Assembly: GCA_944363925.1 (NCBI GenBank)
Contig: CALVVS010000001.1
Location: forward strand, 450 to 64,449
Reading direction: 5' to 3'
DNA from: an uncultured Bacilli bacterium
Lineage (GTDB): Bacteria > Bacillota_I > Bacilli_A > RF39 > UBA660
DNA length: 64,000 bases
Under the pieces are notes generated by a model. The model was not told where the DNA came from. It did not search any database and saw only the letters and a list, made by a program, of their open reading frames with translations. Within the stretch, counting starts at the first letter, position 1. Every line of letters starts with the position of its first letter. Shown piece by piece: positions 3,044-31,721 of this stretch. The position numbers and the translations under genes were made by a program.

Positions 3044-3466
3044 CTATTTATGACAATCATCATCTGGATTGACAAAATTAACCGTATATTCAAAATCACT
3101 ACCATTACTAGTTGTAATAACCACGCTGTCACCATCCGCATAAGGCTCATCTGTCATTGGATTTTCTAACTCATCTTCTATATAGCCACCTTTAATAACC
3201 TGACCATTAATCTCACCGCCATCGTGTAATACACTAACCGCAATCGAAACTGACCCCGAAGCATCCGGAAGTATCTCAGGATAATCAATAGCCACCATCT
3301 TCGCCGCATCTATCAAATTAGTCTTTTGAACAGTGCAAGTATCAAACCGGCTTTGTTTCAAATTACTATCAATCGCTCCTACTGCTATAAGCCCTAAAAT
3401 ACTTAAAATAACAATAACTCCAAGTAACTCCGCCAAAGTAAAGCCATTGCGTAAAGCCTTCTTCAA
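3044..3466 (-). CDS. Type IV pilin/pseudopilin-like protein of 140 aa, either fused in frame to the rpe 3' end or started internally at TTG 3464-3466.
   Basis: The C-terminal 140 aa of ORF 3044..4081 read (L/M)KKALRNG-FTLAELLGVIVILSILGLIAVGAI. This is a class III (prepilin) signal: short basic leader, Gly, Phe+1, Glu+5, hydrophobic helix. It ends with a Cys-containing globular part (..TCTVQ..DDDCHK). AGG lies 9 nt upstream of the TTG. Confidence 0.6.
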   Translation of the reverse strand: MKKALRNGFTLAELLGVIVILSILGLIAVGAIDSNLKQSRFDTCTVQKTNLIDAAKMVAIDYPEILPDASGSVSIAVSVLHDGGEINGQVIKGGYIEDELENPMTDEPYADGDSVVITTSNGSDFEYTVNFVNPDDDCHK

Positions 3467-4081
3467 TTTATAAACCTGACTCTGATAATTATCACTATCC
3501 GTAATAAATGAACCAGCCACTACTATATCAGCTTTTTTAACCAGCCTTATAGTCGTATCATTAATACCGCCATCAACCTCTATCAAATAAGATAAATTAT
3601 TCTCTTTTCGGTAGTGCAAAAGAATATCAAGCCTTTCCGTAATATCGATAAAAGACTGCCCGCCAGCTCCCGCCTTGACACTCATCACTAAAACTAAATC
3701 TATTATATCTAAATATGGATAAATATCCTCAAAATTACTCTTCGGATTAATCGCTAGACCCGCTTTAATTCCTTTTCCGTGAATATAATTAATAACATCT
3801 AAAACATCATCTGCCACCTCAATATGAAAAATAATATAACTAGGTTTTAAAAGTGCCACCTCATCGACATACTTTTTAATATCCTCAACCATTAAATGAA
3901 CATCAAAAGGCTTTTTTAAAGATAAAATTGCACCTTTCATTTTATCCAAAGATAAAGTCGCCTTCTCTGTAAACTTTCCATCCATAATATCAAAGTGAAT
4001 TAAATCACAAACTCTATCTAACTCCCTTATCTTCTCAAAATCATTTTGAATTTTCAAAAAAGACCCCGCAACCTTAACCAT
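3467..4081 (-). CDS. rpe: Ribulose-phosphate 3-epimerase. This is the Rpe portion of a 345-aa ORF that continues in frame into a pilin-like domain.
   Basis: MVKVAGSFLKIQNDFEKIRELDRVCDLIHFDIMDGKF..., HLMVEDIKKY, SVKAGAGGQSF, EVDGGIND are a typical Rpe TIM-barrel. It sits after rsgA, as in the Bacillus yloN-prpC-prkC-cpgA-rpe operon. Confidence 0.85.
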
Positions 4082-11043: not shown

Positions 11044-12033
11044 TTAAGCTAATTTCTTTTTAGCAATTACTATAGCACCAGCACTTAAGGTTAAAGTACC
11101 AACAGCTAAAATAATTCCATCTGAAGTTTTTGGGTTTTCTACTTCATCTTTTACATCTGGTTTCTCTTCCTCAGCAGGAGTTGTAACATCTTCTTTAGTT
11201 AAAACAAAATTACCATCGTTATCCTTAGTCATTTCGTATCCTTCAGCTAAATAGTCAGTAACATCATCAGAGAACGTTCCCCCACTAACAGAAACACTAT
11301 CTTTTCCATCATTAAAGAAAACTGAACCATTAGCTTCAAAAGTACCACCAGTAACACTTAAAGTAGCGCTTCCATCAGTACTTTGGTTAGTAATTAAAGA
11401 ATAAGCTTTATCATTTCCATCAGTAATAGTAAATGTACCATCATTAACAGTCATTTTACCAGCATTGTTAACCACTGAAAAATTATGAGCTTGTTCAAAA
11501 ATACCACCTTCAATTAAAGCAACACCTTCGTTAACTAAACCGAATACATTATCAGCTTCAGTAGTAATCTTACCGCCTTTAAAAGTTAATGTTCCAGTAT
11601 TATGTAAAGCTGCACTTTTCTCACCATTTGCACTAATAACTCCACCTTCAACTGTCAAAATACCTTGATTGTTAACGGTTGGAGCACTAGAAATATCTTT
11701 TCTACTGATAGTTCCATTTCCTTTACTATCCTTAATTGTAAGACTTCCGCCATTTTCAATTAAAATAGCTGAATTATTAGCCGCATAATTAGTAAAATTA
11801 TAACCAGCTAAATCTAAAACTACAACCTCTCCATTTCTAATAATTAAATCTTCATCAGCGTCAGCTGTAAGTGTTAGAGTATAAACTCCATCTTCACCTT
11901 TCACACTTGTAACTCCACTGCCTTCATAACCAATAGTACCTTCACCATCGACATAAACAGCATTTACATAAGTAAAAGGCATTATCATCAAAGCACATAC
12001 AAATAAACCCAAAAATAAACCTAGTTTTTTCAT
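11044..12033 (-). CDS. Secreted beta-helix-like surface protein with a C-terminal sortase-B-type sorting signal (NPKTS + hydrophobic segment + KKK tail)
   Basis: Signal peptide MKKLGLFLGLFVCALMIMPFTYVNA. Degenerate GG/T-rich repeats (GGTF, GGIF, GGKI). C-terminus ENPKTSDGIILAVGTLTLSAGAIVIAKKKLA. A sortase B gene is divergent and adjacent. Confidence 0.7.
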   Translation of the reverse strand: MKKLGLFLGLFVCALMIMPFTYVNAVYVDGEGTIGYEGSGVTSVKGEDGVYTLTLTADADEDLIIRNGEVVVLDLAGYNFTNYAANNSAILIENGGSLTIKDSKGNGTISRKDISSAPTVNNQGILTVEGGVISANGEKSAALHNTGTLTFKGGKITTEADNVFGLVNEGVALIEGGIFEQAHNFSVVNNAGKMTVNDGTFTITDGNDKAYSLITNQSTDGSATLSVTGGTFEANGSVFFNDGKDSVSVSGGTFSDDVTDYLAEGYEMTKDNDGNFVLTKEDVTTPAEEEKPDVKDEVENPKTSDGIILAVGTLTLSAGAIVIAKKKLA

Positions 12034-12180
12034 TTTCTCACCCTTCCTAAGCAAGTAAACTTGCTAATAACATTATAGCAAAATGTGGTTATCAGTACAA
12101 CTTTTTTATAAAAAATTTTTATAAAAATGTCAAACAAAATAATAAATATGATATAATTATAAAAGTTAGGCGGTGAAAAA

Positions 12181-13029
12181 ATGCATACAAACGGACGAAT
12201 AACTAGAACTAAATATCAAAAAAGAAAAAGGCAAAAAAAAATCATTTGGACCATCATTTTAATCATAAGCATTTTAGTCACTATTCTTTGTACCCTGAAA
12301 ATATTCTTATGGAATAAAGATAATAATAAAATAGATGAAATTAATAAAGATATAAATACCAAAAAAATAGTCAAAGAAACCAAAAGTGAAACCGCTGAAA
12401 ATATAAATCCTCCAGAAAGTAAAGAAGACGATTACTGGTATTATATAAATATGGATATGATGAGTGTCGACTTCAATGAACTAAAACAAAAAAATAGTGA
12501 CACCGTCGGCTTCATAAAAGTAAATGGCACCAATGTCAACTATCCAATTGTCCAATCAAATGATAACTCATATTACTTAAAACACGCTTTTGATAAATCT
12601 AAAAACTCCGCTGGTTGGGTTTTCGCCGATTATCGAAATAATATGGTAAACTTTGATAAAAATACTGTCATCTATGGCCATAGTCGTTCTAATCAAACCG
12701 TCTTTGGTAGTCTTAAAAAAGTTACAAATAAATCATGGTATGGAAATAAAGATAACCATATTATAAAACTATCCACGCCAAAAGAAAACACCTTATGGCA
12801 AATCGTCAGCATCTATACAATTAAACCAGAAAGTTATTATATCACAACTAAATTCTCGGATAGTCAGTTTAAAACCTTTATAAAAACCATTAAAGATAGA
12901 AGCCAAATTGATTTTAGTGGTACTTTAAACGAAAACGATAAAATTCTAACCCTTTCAACTTGTGAAGATGTCGCTGGAACCACTAGACTAGTCATCCATG
13001 CCAAACTAATCAAATTAGAAACAAGATAA
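12181..13029 (+). CDS. srtB: Class B sortase
   Basis: N-terminal TM anchor. NYPIVQSNDNSYYLKH, GWVFADYRN, TVIYGHS (His), ILTLSTCED (TLxTC Cys), TRLVIHAKL (Arg). Confidence 0.85.
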   Translation: MHTNGRITRTKYQKRKRQKKIIWTIILIISILVTILCTLKIFLWNKDNNKIDEINKDINTKKIVKETKSETAENINPPESKEDDYWYYINMDMMSVDFNELKQKNSDTVGFIKVNGTNVNYPIVQSNDNSYYLKHAFDKSKNSAGWVFADYRNNMVNFDKNTVIYGHSRSNQTVFGSLKKVTNKSWYGNKDNHIIKLSTPKENTLWQIVSIYTIKPESYYITTKFSDSQFKTFIKTIKDRSQIDFSGTLNENDKILTLSTCEDVAGTTRLVIHAKLIKLETR

Positions 13030-13075
13030 GAAGCTATGTATCTCATAACTTCTTTTTTTACACTAAAAAAGCAGA

Positions 13076-13723
13076 TTATTCTTCTGCTTGAACAAAATTA
13101 ACTATAATATTCATATCCTTATTATACACTTCTCCAGGTGTAACCCCACCTTTATATTTAGCTGTCACCTGCATATTAGCTGTCTCTCCAGCTTTCAAAA
13201 CATCATTATAATCAATTCCACTTACAGAATATATTATAGGTTCATTTACCACATTAGGTAATTTAATACAAGAAAGTCTTGCATCAAAACTACCATCATT
13301 TTTAATCGTCAAATCATAAACAATCGTATCTCCAGCTTTTGCAAAAGAAACATAAAAATTAGCCACCAAATATTCAGAATTAGGTTTATCAGTTTCCTTC
13401 GCCCCACCAATCTGTTCGACAAGCTTTATATCAGAAAAATGAACATCCCACTTGCCATCACGTGGCTGATATTGTTTATTATTAGAAGCAAGTGGCTGTG
13501 CAAAAGTTGAATACCACATAAGAAGTAAAGCCCCAAGTGCCACTAAAATAATTACAATTCTATTAGTTGTTTTCTTAGACATTTTAATATGACGGTCTTT
13601 TGCATCTGTAATTTCATCCGCATGAGGCTCCCATAATTCTAATACTTCAATCTCTTCATCCTTATTATCTTTTTGTTCATCATTAAGATTAAATTTATCA
13701 TCCATATTAAATTTATTATCCAT
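13076..13723 (-). CDS. Hypothetical single-pass membrane protein with an extracytoplasmic beta-rich domain
   Basis: Acidic cytoplasmic N-terminus, TM helix IVIILVALGALLLMWY, then roughly 140 aa outside. Confidence 0.5.
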   Translation of the reverse strand: MDNKFNMDDKFNLNDEQKDNKDEEIEVLELWEPHADEITDAKDRHIKMSKKTTNRIVIILVALGALLLMWYSTFAQPLASNNKQYQPRDGKWDVHFSDIKLVEQIGGAKETDKPNSEYLVANFYVSFAKAGDTIVYDLTIKNDGSFDARLSCIKLPNVVNEPIIYSVSGIDYNDVLKAGETANMQVTAKYKGGVTPGEVYNKDMNIIVNFVQAEE

Positions 13724-16359: not shown

Positions 16360-16977
16360 ATGGAAAAATTAACCCGTAGACAAACCGATGTTTTAAATTA
16401 TGTCAAATCATATATTGTATCTCATGGCTATCCACCAACCGTAAGAGAAATAGGCAAAGCCCTAGATATTTCATCCCCTGCCACTATTCATGCTCATCTA
16501 AATAATTTAGAAAAAAAAGGCTTTATAAAAAAAGAAAACTCTAAAAATAGAGCTATCGAACTTCTTGTAAAAAATGAATTTGAACCCGAAAACGAATTAG
16601 TCGCCGAAGTCCCATTACTAGGTAAAATAACCGCTGGCTCGCCTATCGAAGCTATCGAAATGCCTGACGAATACTTCGCCTTACCTTCATACCTATTACC
16701 TAAAGGTAAAGAAGTTTTCACCTTAAAAGTTGATGGTACCAGTATGATAAACGCCGGCATTTTAGATGGTGACATCGTCATCGTTGAAAGACGAAATAGT
16801 GCTAGAAACGGTGAAATAGTCGTTGCCATGACTGATGAAAATGAAGTAACTCTTAAAACTTTTTACAAAGAAAATGGTCACTTTAGACTTCAACCAGAAA
16901 ACGACACAATGGACCCTATCATTTTAGAAAACGTCACTATACTAGGTAAAGCAATTGGTTTATATAGAAAAATATAA
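16360..16977 (+). CDS. lexA: LexA repressor. Start taken at MEKLTRRQ after RBS AGGAGG; the ORF track starts at 16321.
   Basis: wHTH N-terminus, Ala-Gly cleavage site (KITAGSP), and S24 peptidase Ser/Lys (VDGTSM ... TLKTF). Confidence 0.92.
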   Translation: MEKLTRRQTDVLNYVKSYIVSHGYPPTVREIGKALDISSPATIHAHLNNLEKKGFIKKENSKNRAIELLVKNEFEPENELVAEVPLLGKITAGSPIEAIEMPDEYFALPSYLLPKGKEVFTLKVDGTSMINAGILDGDIVIVERRNSARNGEIVVAMTDENEVTLKTFYKENGHFRLQPENDTMDPIILENVTILGKAIGLYRKI

Positions 16978-17010
16978 AACATGTGAAACAAAACACATGT
17001 TTTTAGTTAT
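16978..17010. terminator. Bidirectional rho-independent terminator between the convergent lexA and repeat-protein genes
   Basis: aacatgtgaaacaaaacacatgtt hairpin flanked by A- and T-runs. Confidence 0.6.
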
Positions 17011-17668: not shown

Positions 17669-18484
17669 TTACTTCCTATAATAAGTACTAGACATCCTAT
17701 ACTCGCCATCTTCTAAAACTAAAGCTATCACATTACCAGATACATCCAAAACCTCTTTTTTAGAAGCATCAGTCCAATTAATACCATCAAAACTATATTT
17801 ATAGCTGTAATTATCACCATCTGGATACTCAATTATTAAACCATCCCCATCTTTAAATTGAATACCATCTATAACCTTAATAAGCCTTTTTTTAGTAACC
17901 TCATTTCCCCTTCCATCAGTTGCCTTACACTCTATAACGTAATTACCAACCTCTGCTTTCAAAGTATTCTCACATCTAAAACTAACCTCACCAGAATTAT
18001 CTGTCGCTATAACTCCATCAGATACATCATAACTAAAAACCTCATCAGTTGTAATTGTCACTGCCGAAGGAACCACCAAACGTGGTTTTTTATTATCCGT
18101 AACAATAACCACTCTTTTAAGCTCTTCTAACTCACCTCCATAAGAAGCTTCGTATTTGACCATATAATTTCCTACCTTCGTCGTATCAATCGAACTAACC
18201 TGCCTGTCATCTAAATAATAAGATATAGAAATCAAAGGTGAAACTTTTTTACCATCAAAATAAGCCACCGCCTTCATCTCTTCGTACTTATCATTTATTC
18301 CCACATAAGTAATAAAATTACCATTTAATACTAATCTAAGACCATCTTTTGAAACATTTTCATTTTGAACAATTTCCTTAGCCTCTGGCCTATTTAAATA
18401 ATCAATAATTCTATTTCCAATAAACAAAATAATCAAAAAAATAGTAATCAACGTAACTAGACCTACTAACCGTGCCTTTCTCAT
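17669..18484 (-). CDS. N-terminally membrane-anchored surface protein with bacterial Ig-like domain(s). It lies immediately downstream of two pilin genes and may be pilus-associated.
   Basis: MRKARLVGLVTLITIFLIILFIG anchor, then a beta-rich region with a DUF5011-like Ig segment (..VTITTDEVFSYDVSDGVIATDNSGEVSF..GNYVIECKATDGRGNEV). Confidence 0.55.
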   Translation of the reverse strand: MRKARLVGLVTLITIFLIILFIGNRIIDYLNRPEAKEIVQNENVSKDGLRLVLNGNFITYVGINDKYEEMKAVAYFDGKKVSPLISISYYLDDRQVSSIDTTKVGNYMVKYEASYGGELEELKRVVIVTDNKKPRLVVPSAVTITTDEVFSYDVSDGVIATDNSGEVSFRCENTLKAEVGNYVIECKATDGRGNEVTKKRLIKVIDGIQFKDGDGLIIEYPDGDNYSYKYSFDGINWTDASKKEVLDVSGNVIALVLEDGEYRMSSTYYRK

Positions 18485-18488
18485 AAAA

Positions 18489-18923
18489 TCAGTCCTTATT
18501 CATATTAGCAATCGTGCAGCTATCCGCATCGTTAATATTTTCATTAATCACAATCTCTTTAGATGAAGCTCCTTTTACCACGCAAATATGCGCACTATCA
18601 CTCCATAAAGCAAGCTTCACCTTACCATTTTCATCAATCTCAAACTCTCCCGCATCTGGAAGTTCACCATCCGTTTTAAGTAAATTCTTAACATCATCTG
18701 AACTAGTCTTATAATTAACTAATAAAGTAGGACTTTCATTTAAAGCTTGCTTCTCAGCTTGATAAGTACCAGCTGCCACAACAAGTCCATGCGCTGAATT
18801 AATAAAAGCCTTTTCCCTAGACGACTGAATAACATCTATCACAATTGGCGCTGTTACCACTGCCACAATCGCAATAATCGCAATAACTGCCAGTAACTCC
18901 GCTAAAGTAAAACCTTTTTTCAT
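18489..18923 (-). CDS. Type IV pilin / competence-type pseudopilin. Start at MKKGFTLAELL; the ORF track extends further upstream.
   Basis: MKKG-FTLAELLAVIAIIAIVAVVTAPIVI class III signal peptide. C-terminal Cys pair (HICVV...SCTIA). Confidence 0.8.
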   Translation of the reverse strand: MKKGFTLAELLAVIAIIAIVAVVTAPIVIDVIQSSREKAFINSAHGLVVAAGTYQAEKQALNESPTLLVNYKTSSDDVKNLLKTDGELPDAGEFEIDENGKVKLALWSDSAHICVVKGASSKEIVINENINDADSCTIANMNKD

Positions 18924-18924
18924 A

Positions 18925-19290
18925 TTACTGAGCCTCCTCAACACTATAAACAAACTCCGTCTCACCAACTTTTTCAACGCAAACCTGCGTTAACTGTGAA
19001 AAATCTTCATTTGTCTTTGGGTTTTTAATATCAACAGGTAAATAACCATTACTCTTTAAACTCTCAAGACTTTGGCATGCCCTATCCCCAACATTAGAAG
19101 GCATCTCCTCTAAGTGCTGCGTATAATAATCTTCTCCACCTTTTTTTATCTGTTCGATTTGCGTTTCATATAAATCTTCTCGGCCACTATCTAAAGAACG
19201 GTTAATCGCCGGCACAGTAATAAGTGCAATAACTCCAAGTATCGCAATAACTCCAAGTAATTCTGCTAAAGTAAAACCACCATTTCTCAT
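18925..19290 (-). CDS. Type IV pilin / pseudopilin. Start at MRNGGFTLAELL after RBS AGGTGA.
   Basis: MRNGG-FTLAELLGVIAILGVIALITVPAI prepilin signal. C-terminal Cys pair (RACQS ... QVCVE). Confidence 0.8.
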   Translation of the reverse strand: MRNGGFTLAELLGVIAILGVIALITVPAINRSLDSGREDLYETQIEQIKKGGEDYYTQHLEEMPSNVGDRACQSLESLKSNGYLPVDIKNPKTNEDFSQLTQVCVEKVGETEFVYSVEEAQ

Positions 19291-19364
19291 ATCATCACCT
19301 ATCATAATTATACAACATTTTTATTTCTAAACAAAATAAAAAGTAACTATTTTTCATAATTACT

Positions 19365-19586
19365 TTACTCATTAACTTCAAAATCTTCTAATTTTCCATT
19401 TTCTGAAACTATTTTATTAACCTTAGTTTCAATATTTTTAAGCTCCGCATCACACTCTTTAACAAGTTTCATAGCCTCCGTATATTTCTTAATTGACTCA
19501 TCTAAAGATACCTCGCCATTTTCTAAAACTTCAATAATGCTTTCTAATTCTGCAATCTTCTCTTCAAATTTTTTCTCTTTTGCCAT
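19365..19586 (-). CDS. xseB: Exodeoxyribonuclease VII small subunit
   Basis: 73-aa coiled-coil protein ..KKFEEKIAELESIIEVLENGEVSLDESIKKY.., immediately downstream of xseA. Confidence 0.85.
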   Translation of the reverse strand: MAKEKKFEEKIAELESIIEVLENGEVSLDESIKKYTEAMKLVKECDAELKNIETKVNKIVSENGKLEDFEVNE

Positions 19587-20857
19587 TATTTATCCTCCTT
19601 AACTTCCAATACTTTAGCGTTTAAATTTCCATCACTTAATCTAATACTAATCATGTCATCTTCTTTAACCTTCAAAACACTCTTTAATGCTTGATCGTTC
19701 AAATATGTAATACTATATCCTCTAGATAAAATATTTAAAGGATTCAAAAGATTAAGCTTATCAATAATATTCTTAACCATTAAAACCTCATCTTTATAAA
19801 GTAAATAAGGATTAGTAAGTACATAACTTTTCTTTATTTTATCAAGTTCATTTTTAAAACACTGAACCTTACTAATCATTAATTCATTTAACTTGTCATT
19901 TATCAAAGATAAACTCTGCTTTTTATTTTCAAACATAATCTGCGGATTTTTTAAAACAAATGAATTTTTAACCGACTCCAAATATAATTTCAAATAATTA
20001 ACTTTCTTATAAATAGCCTCATTAAGCCTAACTTTAAATTGGGCAATATGCTTTTGTAAATCAGCCATATTTGGAACTGCAAGTTCAGCCGCTGCTGTCG
20101 GCGTTGGCGCTCTTAAATCAGCCACAAAATCAGCAATCGTAAAATCAACCTCATGACCAACCGCACTTATAACCGGAACCTTTGAATTATATATAGCTCT
20201 AGCCACTACCTCTTCATTAAATGGCCATAAATCTTCGATAGAGCCACCGCCACGACCAACAATCAAAACATCTAAATCATAATCCTGCGCCCTTTCAATA
20301 TTGCGTACAATATCATCCTTCGCATTTTCTCCCTGCACTAAAGTCGGAAATAAAATCGTCTCACAAATTGGAAACCTTCTTTTAATCGTCGTCATAATAT
20401 CGCGAATAGCCGCTCCAGTACTAGCCGTCACAATTCCAACCCGTTTAGGAACACTAGGTATTTTTCGCTTATATGAAGCCTCAAATAAACCTTCTGCTTG
20501 CAATTTCTTCTTAAGCTGTTCAAAAGCAATATATAAATTACCAACACCATCTTCCAGCATTTCATCGACATATATCTGATAACTTCCCATTGCCTCATAA
20601 ATACTAATGCGTCCACTCACCAAAACCTTCATACCATCCAAAGGTTTAAAAAGCACCTTACTCGCATTACTCCTAAACATAATCGCATTAATCTTACTGC
20701 CTTCATCTTTCAAAGAAAAATAAAAATGCCCTGAAGTATGCGCCTTAAAATTAGAAATTTCCCCTTTTAAAAATACCGTTTGTAAATTTTCATCAACATC
20801 CAGTTTAGCTTTTAAATATCTTGTAATCGCACTAACTGTTAAATACTTCTCGTTCAA
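19586..20857 (-). CDS. xseA: Exodeoxyribonuclease VII large subunit
   Basis: N-terminal OB-fold (FLKGEISNFKAHTSGHFYFSLKD), catalytic core GRGGGSIEDLWPFNEE, and long coiled-coil C-terminus. Confidence 0.9.
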   Translation of the reverse strand: MNEKYLTVSAITRYLKAKLDVDENLQTVFLKGEISNFKAHTSGHFYFSLKDEGSKINAIMFRSNASKVLFKPLDGMKVLVSGRISIYEAMGSYQIYVDEMLEDGVGNLYIAFEQLKKKLQAEGLFEASYKRKIPSVPKRVGIVTASTGAAIRDIMTTIKRRFPICETILFPTLVQGENAKDDIVRNIERAQDYDLDVLIVGRGGGSIEDLWPFNEEVVARAIYNSKVPVISAVGHEVDFTIADFVADLRAPTPTAAAELAVPNMADLQKHIAQFKVRLNEAIYKKVNYLKLYLESVKNSFVLKNPQIMFENKKQSLSLINDKLNELMISKVQCFKNELDKIKKSYVLTNPYLLYKDEVLMVKNIIDKLNLLNPLNILSRGYSITYLNDQALKSVLKVKEDDMISIRLSDGNLNAKVLEVKEDK

Positions 20858-21262
20858 CTACTGCACCTTCTCATGATAAATCTTGTCCAAAACTCCATTT
20901 ATCATCTTTCTAACACTGTCATCACTATATTTTTTAGCAAGTTCGACCGCTTCATTAATAGCTACAACATCTGGTGTATCCGTATATAAAAGTTCAAAAA
21001 TTCCCATTCTAAGTATCGCCATATCAGTATTTCCAAGCCTATCAATTGTCCAGCCATCTAAATATTTATTTGCCAGTTTATCTAATTCATTTTTATAAGT
21101 CAAAACCCCATACACAATTTCTTTAATATATTCATTATCAACCTTTGATACACCCATAATAACATCATCAGGATCATAACTTATATGAGCCTTATCATAA
21201 ACTATCATTTGATATAAAATTGTCATACATTTTAATCTTAATTCACTTCTATTTTCTGCCAT
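20858..21262 (-). CDS. nusB: Transcription antitermination factor NusB
   Basis: 134 aa, all-helical. It sits at the head of nusB-xseA-xseB as in Bacillus, with a 1-nt junction to xseA. Confidence 0.85.
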
Positions 21263-21353: not shown

Positions 21354-22433
21354 TTACTTTCTGTGCGCATACTCTTCTTTAACCTCATCATTACTAATTC
21401 CAAACCTTTTTAAAAAGTTATTACCAGATAAAATCAAATAATTAAACCCTTTATGGTCTAAAGTCACCTTATTAAAAATCAAATAATTCAAACGCGCATA
21501 ACTAAGTTCAGCTCCTTGAATTAAATAAGAAGGCCTTTTTAATATCTCTCTTTCTAAAGAAACATCCATCAAAATATCTATTTTTTTATTCAAAGTACTA
21601 ATCGAATAACTATATACATTTGGCAATTTTAAAGTAATAAAAATAGTCTCCTCAGCGGAATATCCCTTACTTAAAAAACAATTAAAAGTCTCTTTTATAT
21701 TCTCTAAACTTAACGTATAAATAGCTGGATTAACACCTGTAACTATATTAATCTCATCTTCACTATATCCAAACTCTTTTAAACACTGTCTTTTACTTTC
21801 CATCCTCGAAATATTCATCACAATAATATTTGAATTTCGGTAAATCATCTTAGCTAATCTATCAGTATCATAACCTTTTGAAAGTAAATAATCATAATTT
21901 TTCTTTAAAAGCTCCAAACTACAAGTATAAATCATCGGCGAATCTTTAATTATTTTATTAATTTCCTTATCATTAAACCCTAAATCCTTAAAGAAATTCC
22001 TTTTATCATTAATTGCATCTACAGATAAACTAAATAAACTAGGAAGCATCACCGTAAATTTATGAACCATACTATTAGAATAACCATAACCTTTTAAAAG
22101 CTCTAACTTACTTAAAATAAGACCCTCGCTAATAGTTAGTAAAGCAGGTAAAATAATAACCATATTTTTCACTTCAGCCTCGCGATATCCAAGTAACTTC
22201 AAAAAGCTAAAACGTTCATTTAACGTTTCAGCTGGATAATTAAACAAAGTTGGATTTAAAGTAGTCATTAAAATAATTTGTTTATTATCATATCCTCTAC
22301 CTTTTAAATAATTAAAAGTTTTAACAACTTTCTTCTCTAAAGTTTCTCTAGCAAGCCTTTTAACCGCATGACTATTAATAATTTTCTCTTGAGCACGCTT
22401 ATCATACCCTAAATTACTTAGTACATCTGACAT
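21354..22433 (-). CDS. mTERF-like helical repeat protein (putative nucleic-acid-binding)
   Basis: At least eight tandem roughly 35-aa repeats of the form L(K/L)xxG(Y/F)sxxxIxxIIxxxPxLLxxSxExLxxxxxFL, for example LKEFGYSEDEINIVTGVNPAIYTLSLENIKETFNCF. This matches the mTERF motif. Confidence 0.6.
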   Translation of the reverse strand: MSDVLSNLGYDKRAQEKIINSHAVKRLARETLEKKVVKTFNYLKGRGYDNKQIILMTTLNPTLFNYPAETLNERFSFLKLLGYREAEVKNMVIILPALLTISEGLILSKLELLKGYGYSNSMVHKFTVMLPSLFSLSVDAINDKRNFFKDLGFNDKEINKIIKDSPMIYTCSLELLKKNYDYLLSKGYDTDRLAKMIYRNSNIIVMNISRMESKRQCLKEFGYSEDEINIVTGVNPAIYTLSLENIKETFNCFLSKGYSAEETIFITLKLPNVYSYSISTLNKKIDILMDVSLEREILKRPSYLIQGAELSYARLNYLIFNKVTLDHKGFNYLILSGNNFLKRFGISNDEVKEEYAHRK

Positions 22434-23479: not shown

Positions 23480-24361
23480 TTAAGAACTTACGACATATGG
23501 ATCAGATTGTGTTCCACTTCCAGTCAAAGTAATTTCAGAACTTAAATATAAGACTGGGCGAACCGCAGTGTTCGTATCATCCGCACCGTAGTAGTCGTGG
23601 ATGCTGCCACTCTCAACACAGAACACAGTGTAAGAGTTGTCAGAATTAGGTGACAAAGTCCACCAATAGTCATTTATATACATCCAAGTTGTATTTTTAC
23701 ACTTATTATAATTATCATCGTTTAAATTAAATGAACCACATTCACTTTTATTGCTATTTGTTCTGATATATTCACTTACTGTAGGTAAAGCTACTTTCCC
23801 GTTCAATTTTATTCCGTTTTCATTATTTATTTGTTGAGCTAAATCATTATTATCATTTGTTATTGTACCGATACTCCAGTCTTTTGCTACAATCTGACTT
23901 TTAGCAGTGACATTTAACCCATTATAATATGTCCCATTTAAGTATGTATTTAAACTTGCTGGTCTGGCCCAATTACTAATATTAGAACTATCCCACGCCA
24001 TCCTTTCTATATATGCTTGTCTCATTATTTTTATTGTCCCATCACACTCAACTGAGATTATTCTCCATCCAGCAGTTTCATTATTAAAAGTGACATAATT
24101 ATTTGGATTAGCTCCTGTAAAGAAATAACGACACTCATAAGGGTCTTTCTCTAAATCTGCATCTTCAATTACTTGATCACCAGCACTTGGAAAACACACT
24201 CCATATAATTCATCGATAGCTCCTTGCACATTGGTACTTGAAAGACCACTTTCTTTATTATCATATGTAACATCATTAGATGGAAAATATGTCTCCGCAT
24301 ATACAGCAACTATTCCTACTGACACAAAACCAAGTATAAAACCAATCAAATATTTTTTCAT
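23480..24361 (-). CDS. Secreted Asn/Tyr/Trp-rich protein of unknown function, preceded by a coupled 8-codon uORF and a long homopolymeric tract
   Basis: Signal peptide MKKYLIGFILGFVSVGIVAVYA. It has an NVQGAIDELYGVC motif and no strong RBS of its own. Confidence 0.6.
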   Translation of the reverse strand: MKKYLIGFILGFVSVGIVAVYAETYFPSNDVTYDNKESGLSSTNVQGAIDELYGVCFPSAGDQVIEDADLEKDPYECRYFFTGANPNNYVTFNNETAGWRIISVECDGTIKIMRQAYIERMAWDSSNISNWARPASLNTYLNGTYYNGLNVTAKSQIVAKDWSIGTITNDNNDLAQQINNENGIKLNGKVALPTVSEYIRTNSNKSECGSFNLNDDNYNKCKNTTWMYINDYWWTLSPNSDNSYTVFCVESGSIHDYYGADDTNTAVRPVLYLSSEITLTGSGTQSDPYVVSS

Positions 24362-30869: not shown

Positions 30870-31721
30870 ATGTCTTATAAATTAGATAAAAAGAAATCAA
30901 ATAAATTTAGCAAATTTTTAATCGCATCTGGAATTGCCGTAGCCTTAATTGGTCAAGGATATGCTGGTATTACCATTTTTAGTCAATTAGAAGGTGTTAA
31001 AACAAATGACACCATCATAACCCAAGTCATCACCGATAAACAAGCAGACACTAAAGCCCAAGAAAATAATAATAATAATATAGACCAAGATATAAACCAA
31101 GAAGAATATATCCCCAAATATGATATTAACGAATTACAACAGCAATATCCAAATGCTTGGGGCATCTTAGAAAAACCAAACGGTACAGCTTTTCCAATTG
31201 CCACCACCAATTCTAGAGAAGAAGAAGACTACTATCTTACACACACCTTAGATGGTAACTATAGTAGCTCTGGAACCGTTTTCTTAGACCATCAAAACGA
31301 TAAAGACATGAACAACCAAGTCAGCCGTATTTGGGGACATAATCTACTTGGTGAAAACATGTTTGGTGATTTAACTGAATATCAAAATCAAGGTCAAAAC
31401 TTTTATGATCAAAATAAAACATATACTCTTTATACTGCTAAAGGTGTATATCAATTAGACGTATTTGCCGCCCTAGAAGAAGACGGAACTACTCAAGAAT
31501 TTGACTATAATAACCAAGATGCTTTTCTCGAAGATATGTATAATAATATAAACGCATCTAATTTTACTTCAGATGTAACCATCGAACCAGATAACCAAGT
31601 CATTATTTTAGAATGCTGTCCAGATAGAGGAAGTGCCTTTTCCGGAAATAATCGGTTTGCTGTTTATACCAAAATAACCCCAATCTACGAATACGATTTA
31701 TCACAAAATAAAACCTTATAA
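30870..31721 (+). CDS. Sortase-B-like protein with an atypical active-site region (ILECC instead of TLxTC)
   Basis: N-terminal TM. NAWGILEKPNGTAFPIATT, DYYLTHTLDG, RIWGHN (His), QVIILECCPDRGS, NRFAVYTKI (Arg). This is the same domain order as the srtB at 12181. Confidence 0.55.
   Translation: MSYKLDKKKSNKFSKFLIASGIAVALIGQGYAGITIFSQLEGVKTNDTIITQVITDKQADTKAQENNNNNIDQDINQEEYIPKYDINELQQQYPNAWGILEKPNGTAFPIATTNSREEEDYYLTHTLDGNYSSSGTVFLDHQNDKDMNNQVSRIWGHNLLGENMFGDLTEYQNQGQNFYDQNKTYTLYTAKGVYQLDVFAALEEDGTTQEFDYNNQDAFLEDMYNNINASNFTSDVTIEPDNQVIILECCPDRGSAFSGNNRFAVYTKITPIYEYDLSQNKTL

Follow-up and report, generated by a model that had tools for sequence, protein, structure and literature searches.

What role do two prepilin genes play where no gene for a pilus assembly machine lies nearby? 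The question is raised by a 64,000-nucleotide (nt) stretch of DNA from an uncultured RF39 bacterium of the Bacilli (assembly GCA_944363925.1, contig CALVVS010000001.1). We refer to the whole stretch as the window. Here, two prepilin genes, pilin1 and pilin2, are followed by a gene for a membrane-anchored protein with immunoglobulin (Ig)-like domains. On balance, we judge it probable that pilin1 and pilin2 serve as accessory pilins, with the Ig protein as their partner, in a type IV filament whose assembly genes are elsewhere in the genome. The three genes are as follows:

19290-18925, minus strand: pilin1, prepilin of 121 amino acids (aa), matching N_methyl and TIGR02532
18923-18489, minus strand: pilin2, prepilin of 144 aa, matching N_methyl and TIGR02532
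18484-17669, minus strand: Ig protein, 271 aa, bitopic, with a transmembrane (TM) helix and three tandem Ig-like domains (PF16403)

Two prepilins and an Ig-domain protein

Type IV pilins carry a class III signal (PF07963, TIGR02532, IPR012902): a short, hydrophilic leader ending in Gly or Ala, then about 20 hydrophobic residues, in most cases with Glu at +5. Both window proteins have these features. The pilin1 N-terminus is MRNGG/FTLAELLGVIAILGVIALITVP and that of pilin2 is MKKG/FTLAELLAVIAIIAIVAVV (also given as MKKG/FTLAELLAVIAIIAIVAVVTAP), slashes marking the cleavage site. Each mature protein would start FTLAELL, with Gly-1, Phe+1, Glu+5 and a hydrophobic N-terminal part of the first helix (α1N). 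The Pfam family N_methyl (PF07963, cut-off 21.2 bits) was matched by pilin1 with 23.2 bits and by pilin2 with 26.5 bits. For TIGR02532 (cut-off 16.3 bits) the scores were 20.6 and 30.2 bits, respectively. An earlier note on this DNA had proposed two adjacent prepilin genes with FTLAELL leaders, to be abandoned if the N-terminal motifs fell short of the thresholds of pilin hidden Markov models. Both proteins exceed both thresholds and the proposal stands. At the DNA level, a degenerate pattern for GFTLAELL had three matches in the window and none in 100 shuffles.

The signal residues of pilin2 are conserved among 24 orthologues; G4 is nearly invariant and F5, T6, L7 and E9 are kept. Each pilin has exactly two cysteines, C72 and C104 in pilin1, and C114 and C136 in pilin2. 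The pilin2 pair is invariant across the 24 orthologues and the pilin1 pair is retained in the closest genus only. The C-terminal disulfide pairs described earlier are thus present as two cysteines per protein, but the pilin1 pair is not widely kept and the bonds themselves are predictions from sequence.

The AlphaFold2 (AF2) model of pilin2 has a predicted local distance difference test (pLDDT) score of 86.5. It contains a helix (residues 7-60) and a four-stranded sheet (strands 67-70, 91-96, 102-108 and 113-117). Hence, pilin2 is predicted to be a classic pilin 'lollipop', in which a long N-terminal α-helix packs on a head of antiparallel β-sheet. Sequence searches of the PDB with the two pilins matched pilins exclusively (PilE1, geopilin, MshA and PilA), over α1 only. 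The best profile match of pilin2 was PilE1 of Streptococcus sanguinis (8pfb_G, E 3e-8). The globular part of pilin1 bears a GspG-like motif, GYLP.DI.NP.T, in the orthologue alignment. Scores against named pilin families were low. ComGC (NF040999, cut-off 75 bits) gave 23.1 bits for pilin1 and 21.6 for pilin2; ComGD (cut-off 70) gave 13.3 and 20.4; ComGE (cut-off 49) gave 18.2 and 15.3; the GspG equivalog (TIGR01710, cut-off 88.85) gave 27.7 and 20.6. GspG is the best-scoring NCBIfam equivalog for pilin1 and covers N-terminal residues 5-65. We conclude that pilin1 and pilin2 are type IV pilin-fold proteins outside every named equivalog.

The Ig protein scored 32.9 bits against PF16403 (formerly DUF5011), above the gathering cut-off of 27, and has an Ig-like β-sandwich fold. 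In its AF2 model (pLDDT 87.2), residues 2-30 form a TM helix, which a disordered linker connects to three β-sandwich domains. In the PDB, Foldseek matched the model to Rib, SraP, chitinase-Ig and cadherin-type arrays (E 2e-9 to 3e-6). Of the structure predictions that the earlier note had recommended, those of pilin2 and the Ig protein gave a lollipop and an anchored three-domain protein, respectively, and the note's TM-anchored, DUF5011-type third gene is confirmed. The Ig family is confined to the window's lineage. In the window, the N-terminus of the Ig protein is MRKARLVGLVTL, which lacks a prepilin cleavage site. We considered whether this might be a degenerate class III signal, since some orthologues have GYTKAQ. 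The idea was rejected; the Gly is unconserved, position +5 is Q or R, and the window copy has no Gly. Hence, the Ig protein cannot polymerise as a pilin and may be a simple membrane-anchored surface protein.

A link between pilin1 and the Ig module is provided by a prepilin from another metagenome. This 292-aa protein, P0139, combines a pilin1-like module (39% identity to pilin1 over 101 aa, E 3e-24) with the Ig domains seen in the window's third gene. In the relative L021, PF16403 is likewise carried on a prepilin. The P0139 fusion is a Rosetta-stone case, indicating a functional link between pilin1 and the Ig module. By analogy, a role as a pilus-associated adhesin or stalk is plausible for the window's TM-anchored Ig protein. 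The tip adhesin suggested earlier is thus plausible via P0139 and L021, although the protein has no class III signal of its own. In one low-coverage (~4x) strain (L009, 467-1282), the Ig gene is split into open reading frames (ORFs) of 79 and 164 aa by a point change with no indel. The split reflects either a loss in this strain or a mistake in the assembly.

The window is AT-rich (~30% G+C), has strongly negative GC skew and carries nearly all of its genes on the minus strand. The gap between pilin1 and pilin2 is 1 nt, that between pilin2 and the Ig gene is 4 nt, and each gene has its own Shine-Dalgarno (SD) sequence. Given this spacing, the three genes are a tight, translationally coupled operon. 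The surrounding features, in the direction of transcription, are:

21262-20858, minus strand: nusB, housekeeping, in the block immediately upstream
20857-19586, minus strand: xseA, housekeeping, in the block immediately upstream
19586-19365, minus strand: xseB, last gene of the block (19365-21262) before pilin1
19291-19364, minus strand: xseB-pilin1 spacer, 74 nt, with SD AGGTGA at 19300-19295
17587-17003, minus strand: 194-aa repeat protein, last gene ahead of the terminator and possible fourth operon member
16976-17003, no strand assigned: bidirectional terminator-like hairpin between the 194-aa gene and convergent lexA

The order is therefore nusB, xseA, xseB, the spacer, pilin1, pilin2, the Ig gene, the 194-aa gene, the hairpin and then lexA. 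This corrects the earlier placement of the cluster upstream of xseB, which it follows in transcription. The end previously given to the cluster, 19305, is an in-frame upstream ATG; the start at 19290 is favoured by the SD AGGTGA and by the 121 aa of the gene callers. No terminator-like hairpin was found in the xseB-pilin1 spacer, and the hairpin at 16976-17003 is the sole terminator-like site 3' of xseB. A promoter scan of the spacer gave matches at shuffle level, none above chance. The 194-aa protein consists of ~33-residue repeats (..YMY.FA..V...D...E.AII.S.D..) with no match in Pfam or NCBIfam searches. Its gene is absent from CAG:822-type relatives (L010-L012, L019).

Exact copies of all three operon proteins occur on many human-gut metagenome contigs. 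Pilin2 shares 70% identity with a protein from 'Firmicutes bacterium CAG:822'. The GTDB genus CAG-822 belongs to family CAG-822 of order RF39 (PMC8035907), whose members are gut Bacilli that are uncultured and have reduced genomes (PMC12306168). The xseA-xseB-pilin1-pilin2 synteny holds in RF39/CAG-822 relatives down to ~45% pilin identity, and the Ig gene comes next after the pilin pair in most of them. A literature search on pili or competence of RF39 or CAG-822 found nothing specific.

Differences between copies are mostly synonymous. Within the species, comparison with the window gave 0 non-synonymous and 1-2 synonymous differences for pilin1, 0-2 and 0-4 for pilin2, and 0-6 and 3-8 for the Ig gene. 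The corresponding ratio of non-synonymous to synonymous polymorphism (pN/pS) is 0-0.3. Against the sister species L010, pN/pS was 0.42 for pilin1 and 0.32 for pilin2; xseAB and nusB gave values of 0.18-0.21, and the Flp-type pilin described below gave 0.11. Hence, the genes are maintained by selection and are not decaying. From these alignments, the operon appears to be functional, under purifying selection and not cryptic. The reduced or cryptic module offered as one option in the earlier note finds no support in the xseAB-linked conservation, the purifying selection or the retention of a conserved Flp.

Assembly machinery in the window and in related genomes

The absence of ComGA/PilB, ComGB/PilC and prepilin peptidase from the 64 kb, as first noted, was confirmed using tblastn and Pfam. 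In tblastn searches of the window with CpaF, TadB, TadC, TadZ, TadE, PilC and PilD of relatives, none was found and a Flp probe alone matched. Approximate probes for ComGA and ComC had no match in the window. Genes for a T2SSE ATPase, a T2SSF platform and an A24 peptidase are all missing from the 64 kb, and the window's candidate membrane and ATPase ORFs are assigned by Pfam to other families (M50 or CmpB-type) or are unassigned. We considered the 125-aa membrane protein beside Flp, the M50 protein and the CmpB-like protein as a cryptic prepilin peptidase. All were rejected, having no A24 signal.

Besides the prepilin pair, two further pilin-type genes, not listed in the earlier note, are present in the window:

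23052-22861, minus strand: Flp-type pilin, 63 aa, 3.5 kb upstream of the pilin pair on the same strand
4081-3044, minus strand: Rpe::prepilin fusion, 345 aa, the third GFTLAELL prepilin

The Flp-type pilin begins MKLNNKG/QALVEYLLIIAV and has the processing motif KG/QALVEY. Its PF04964 score is 22.5 bits, below the cut-off of 32.2, and no tad gene adjoins it in the window. Its neighbours are a DUF192 gene and the gene for the 125-aa membrane protein, and it is detached from all tad genes in this lineage. Identity across relatives is 82-89%, with pN/pS ~0.1. The protein (63 aa) is 86% identical to the Flp that heads a Flp-TadE-TadE-TadZ-CpaF-TadB-TadC operon in the relative L049.

Relatives were represented by 80 loci, obtained by scanning a genome collection with a pilin2 profile and drawn from metagenome-assembled genomes (MAGs) of related Bacilli, 'Tenericutes' and 'Mollicutes'. 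A Walker-A regular expression for T2SSE detected FtsK and VirD4 only in these loci; CpaF genes were found with a tblastn probe. A Tad-type operon, TadE-TadE-TadZ(ParA)-CpaF-TadB(Ig-like domain)-TadC, is present in three loci and in one prevalent human-gut species reached via CpaF. An N_methyl pilin gene lies beside or inside the operon, directly upstream of TadE (L087, L101-L108), between CpaF and TadB (L069) or after TadC (L049). The Tad-adjacent pilin of L087 and pilin2 share 39% identity over 106 aa, a span that extends into the globular head and includes a DG.LP..G...NGKV motif. In L096, from a more distant MAG, genes for a PilC-like platform and an A24 peptidase are ~2.7 kb upstream of an N_methyl leucine-rich repeat (LRR) pilin. 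Hence, relatives hold type IV filament machines and their pilin genes are usually remote from them. The context of P0207 belongs to an organism other than the window's.

An Ig-like domain of the PF16403 family, extra-cytoplasmic and sub-threshold (23-24 bits), is also found in the clade's TadB-like platform of ~500 aa:

L049, 7772-9274: TadB-like platform with Ig-like domain
L069, 4981-6471: TadB-like platform with Ig-like domain
L087, 13875-15374: TadB-like platform with Ig-like domain
L101, 11334-12830: TadB-like platform with Ig-like domain

Related MAGs also encode many prepilin-leader proteins, several per genome and often of 300-2670 aa (L019-L098). Modules on these proteins include PF16403 Ig with ALK_LTK_GRD, BspA-type LRR, DUF6273, and Flg_new with Fib_succ_major. 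Examples of loci with large prepilins are L021, L024, L030, L058, L090, L096 and L097, the last of which has five tandem LRR-pilin paralogues of ~675 aa each. We regard the large prepilins as modular pilins, as the term is used in work on S. sanguinis (PMC8179133; PMC10191384).

Role of the pilin operon

If the operon serves a type IV filament, its products would be inserted by Sec, and an A24 prepilin peptidase, with its gene elsewhere, would cut off the pilin leaders behind the Gly. Mature pilins would then enter the filament via a machine also encoded elsewhere in the genome. The likely role of pilin1 and pilin2 would be that of low-abundance accessory, priming or tip pilins and not of the major subunit. 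As the machine, the Tad/CpaF type (type IVc) typical of the clade seems likeliest, with Flp as the major pilin; a ComG or type IVa machine would be the second candidate. The Ig protein would stay anchored by its own TM helix. It may associate with the pilins, at the filament itself or at the base, or be an adhesin or stalk in its own right. A pilin1-type module and the Ig domains make up a single modular pilin in at least one relative. Machinery encoded elsewhere, one of two options in the earlier note, is thus the one we favour. The support is indirect and comes from conservation, selection, Flp retention and the Tad-adjacent pilins of relatives. It also fits that Bulleidia extructa, an isolate of the Erysipelotrichales whose genome is small, has retained tad as well as comG (PMC12786226). 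Scattered pil genes are normal for type IVa pili (PMC10191384), so a pilin operon remote from assembly genes is ordinary.

Two known systems are close to this picture. The window pilins share the class III signal G/FTLxE with PilE1/PilE2 and the modular minor pilins PilB/PilC of S. sanguinis (PMC10628169, PMC8179133, PMC9934059). These type IVa pilins have a long α1 and a β-sheet head, as in the pilin2 model, and adhesive modules 'grafted' onto them follow the same idea as P0139, L021 and the large prepilins of relatives. However, the similarity is limited to α1, and the window leaders are 4-5 residues long. Whereas pil genes of S. sanguinis are clustered with PilB/C/D/M/N/O/T, no machine gene accompanies the window pilins, and the Ig module is a separate non-pilin gene, unlike in modular pilins. 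Tad/Flp (type IVc) loci, such as those of Caulobacter (CpaF) and Bulleidia extructa (PMC12786226), have a counterpart in the operons of relatives and in the window's Flp gene. The TANB77 gut-clade pilus cluster (PMC11680825) likewise has a reduced-genome, uncultured gut lineage as host. In contrast to Tad/Flp systems, the window pilins are of the N_methyl type (GFTLxE) with globular heads, not Flp or TadE/F, and the window's Flp is detached from machine genes. The operons of relatives were seen without an adjacent TadV, and their TadB-like platform has an extra Ig-like domain.

Several observations weigh against a filament built from these parts. The pilins of canonical Tad systems are Flp and TadE/F, and N_methyl pilins of the GFTLxE type are not among them. 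Of the 80 pilin loci, only 3-4 are within 10 kb of a Tad operon, which is near random expectation for ±10 kb; by our rough estimate, only direct pilin-Tad adjacency is clearly enriched. A homologue search with the CpaF of a relative gave 8000 matches; the 120 listed were all at least 83% identical to the query, and none of these was on a contig attributable to the window's species. That the organism's own genome encodes any type IV filament machine is something we infer. Foldseek comparison of the pilin2 model with the PDB gave nothing significant, the top match being gonococcal pilin 1ay2 (E 0.31). No class III signal was found in the orthologue alignment of the Ig protein. Nor is the Ig partner universal; in L013 the third gene encodes an unrelated 157-aa protein.

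Could the pilins instead belong to a competence (Com) pseudopilus? ComGC/ComGD-like pilins would then capture DNA, with ComGA/ComGB/ComC encoded elsewhere, and the nearby xseAB and lexA would fit a DNA-processing theme. Com pili are widespread type IV filaments of monoderms (PMC10191384), and comG is present in Bulleidia extructa, a reduced-genome relative (PMC12786226). Proximity to xseAB is a conserved feature, and the N-terminal 40-60 residues of the pilins align to the ComGC and GspG models. With ComGC of the Com pilus (NF040999; PMC7212644) they share a monoderm host, short prepilins and a similar α1N. However, scores for ComGC, ComGD, ComGE and GspG are 13-28 bits against cut-offs of 49-89 (for ComGC, 21.6-23.1 against 75), and the pilin2 model has a β-sheet head. 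There is no comG operon context; only two pilins are present and ComGF/GG-like genes are missing. Larger paralogues of the pilin2 family bear adhesin modules (LRR, Ig, DUF6273, Fib_succ_major) and adjoin Tad, not com, genes. As for xseAB, nusB-xseA-xseB is a common housekeeping block, and the adjacency may be mere synteny. We consider the competence pseudopilus of the earlier note unsupported and unlikely. A secretion piston is far less probable still. Here, a short pseudopilus like that of the type II secretion system (T2SS) would work across the monoderm wall, with the Ig protein as substrate or wall-spanning component. GspG is indeed the best NCBIfam similarity of pilin1 (27.7 bits), the GYLP...NP.T motif is reminiscent of it, and the TadB-like platform of relatives bears an Ig-like domain of the same Pfam family. 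Yet the score is far below the cut-off of 88.85, no GspH-K set is present, and T2SS is restricted to diderms (PMC10191384).

Alternatively, the proteins may need no machine. The class III signal would be only a signal anchor, cleaved or not, on surface proteins that never polymerise; in a weaker version, they would be remnants of a lost pilus system. The lack of machinery in the 64 kb agrees with this, as does the plain TM helix that anchors the Ig protein. The relatives' dozens of 300-2670-aa prepilin-leader proteins, encoded amid housekeeping genes and mostly far from type IV filament genes, point the same way. But Gly-1, Phe+1 and Glu+5 are nearly or fully invariant; cleavage, methylation and assembly depend on them, whereas anchoring in the membrane does not. 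The purifying selection, the retained and highly conserved Flp gene and the pilins that directly adjoin Tad genes in relatives also argue against free-standing proteins, which we think quite improbable. Accessory pilins of a type IV filament assembled from elsewhere in the genome remain the reading we prefer.

The RF39 lineage, prevalent in the human gut, uncultured and reduced in genome, has kept conserved, selected pilin operons and a very conserved Flp. These pilins, Flp and the prepilin adhesins of relatives beside a Tad-type machine point to type IV filaments as the main device for surface interaction. Pilins and adhesins offer concrete targets, for example as antigens or as handles for cell sorting towards cultivation. 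Worth following are the clade-wide link between N_methyl pilins and Tad, and the fusion of a prepilin to Rpe.

The Rpe::prepilin fusion and other surface proteins

The oddest finding in the window is the gene at 3044-4081. Here, a six-frame motif scan placed a prepilin in frame at the C-terminus of ribulose-phosphate 3-epimerase (Rpe), and the junction contains no stop codon. The cleavage motif, ...YKLKKALRNG/FTLAELL, is at residues 212/213. The enzyme part scored 144.8 bits against PF00834 and 180.7 bits against NF004076 (cut-off 165); the pilin part scored 23.2 bits against N_methyl. A second species, L100 (3419-4468), has the same fusion with 65% identity in the pilin part, in the order pknB-rsgA-rpe::pilin-nifJ. 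In L100, the stretch from the Rpe domain to the G/F site contains no ATG, GTG or TTG. The 50%-identity cluster P0260 contains 10 members of exactly 345 aa and one 252-aa fragment. We therefore rejected an assembly error or an internal start; the fusion recurs in L100 with no internal start and in 10 full-length cluster members. A second Rpe::prepilin fusion, P0264, carries another pilin domain, and the pilin part of the window's fusion has stand-alone orthologues in P0282 and P0355. Other Rpe proteins of the group (P0284, P0351, P0327, P0335, P0325) have multi-TM hydrophobic C-terminal extensions and no pilin. Membrane tethering of Rpe may be a recurring theme of the clade.

The topology of the fusion is compatible with an enzyme inside the cell, a TM helix and a pilin head outside. 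Prepilin peptidase would release both parts, removing a 212-residue enzyme 'leader'. We know of no described precedent for such a protein. If confirmed, it would extend class III signal processing in a new way.

A bolder extension of our preferred reading, which we hold to be doubtful though worth stating, is a hybrid filament. RF39 and related small-genome gut Bacilli would have co-opted a Tad (type IVc) machine to display GFTLxE pilins of type IVa style. On this account, the Flp gene may have drifted away from the machine genes, and the xseB-linked pilin pair, together with the large repertoire of modular adhesin-pilins, may provide interchangeable tips. One prepilin may be made as the C-terminus of Rpe, with the peptidase acting as a polyprotein-processing enzyme.

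Other genes of the window encode further candidate surface proteins and one repeat protein. The product of 23480-24361 (minus strand, 293 aa) contains DUF6273; its N-terminus is an ordinary TM or signal sequence. In the relatives L030, L046 and L049, DUF6273 is joined to a prepilin leader; the L049 gene comes directly after TadC. Between the Flp region and nusB, 21354-22433 (minus strand) encodes a 359-aa mTERF-repeat protein (PF02536, 117 bits), with paralogues in L051. The mTERF family is best known from mitochondria and plastids. Finally, the regions 11044-13723 and 30870-31721 contain two sortase genes, a gene for an NPXTG-type anchored, β-helix-like surface protein (336 aa) and one for a 215-aa TM protein with a DUF11-like domain. 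Hence, the organism also has a sortase-based route for surface display. In L019 and L046, genes for homologues of the 215-aa protein and pilin genes are 3-8 kb apart.

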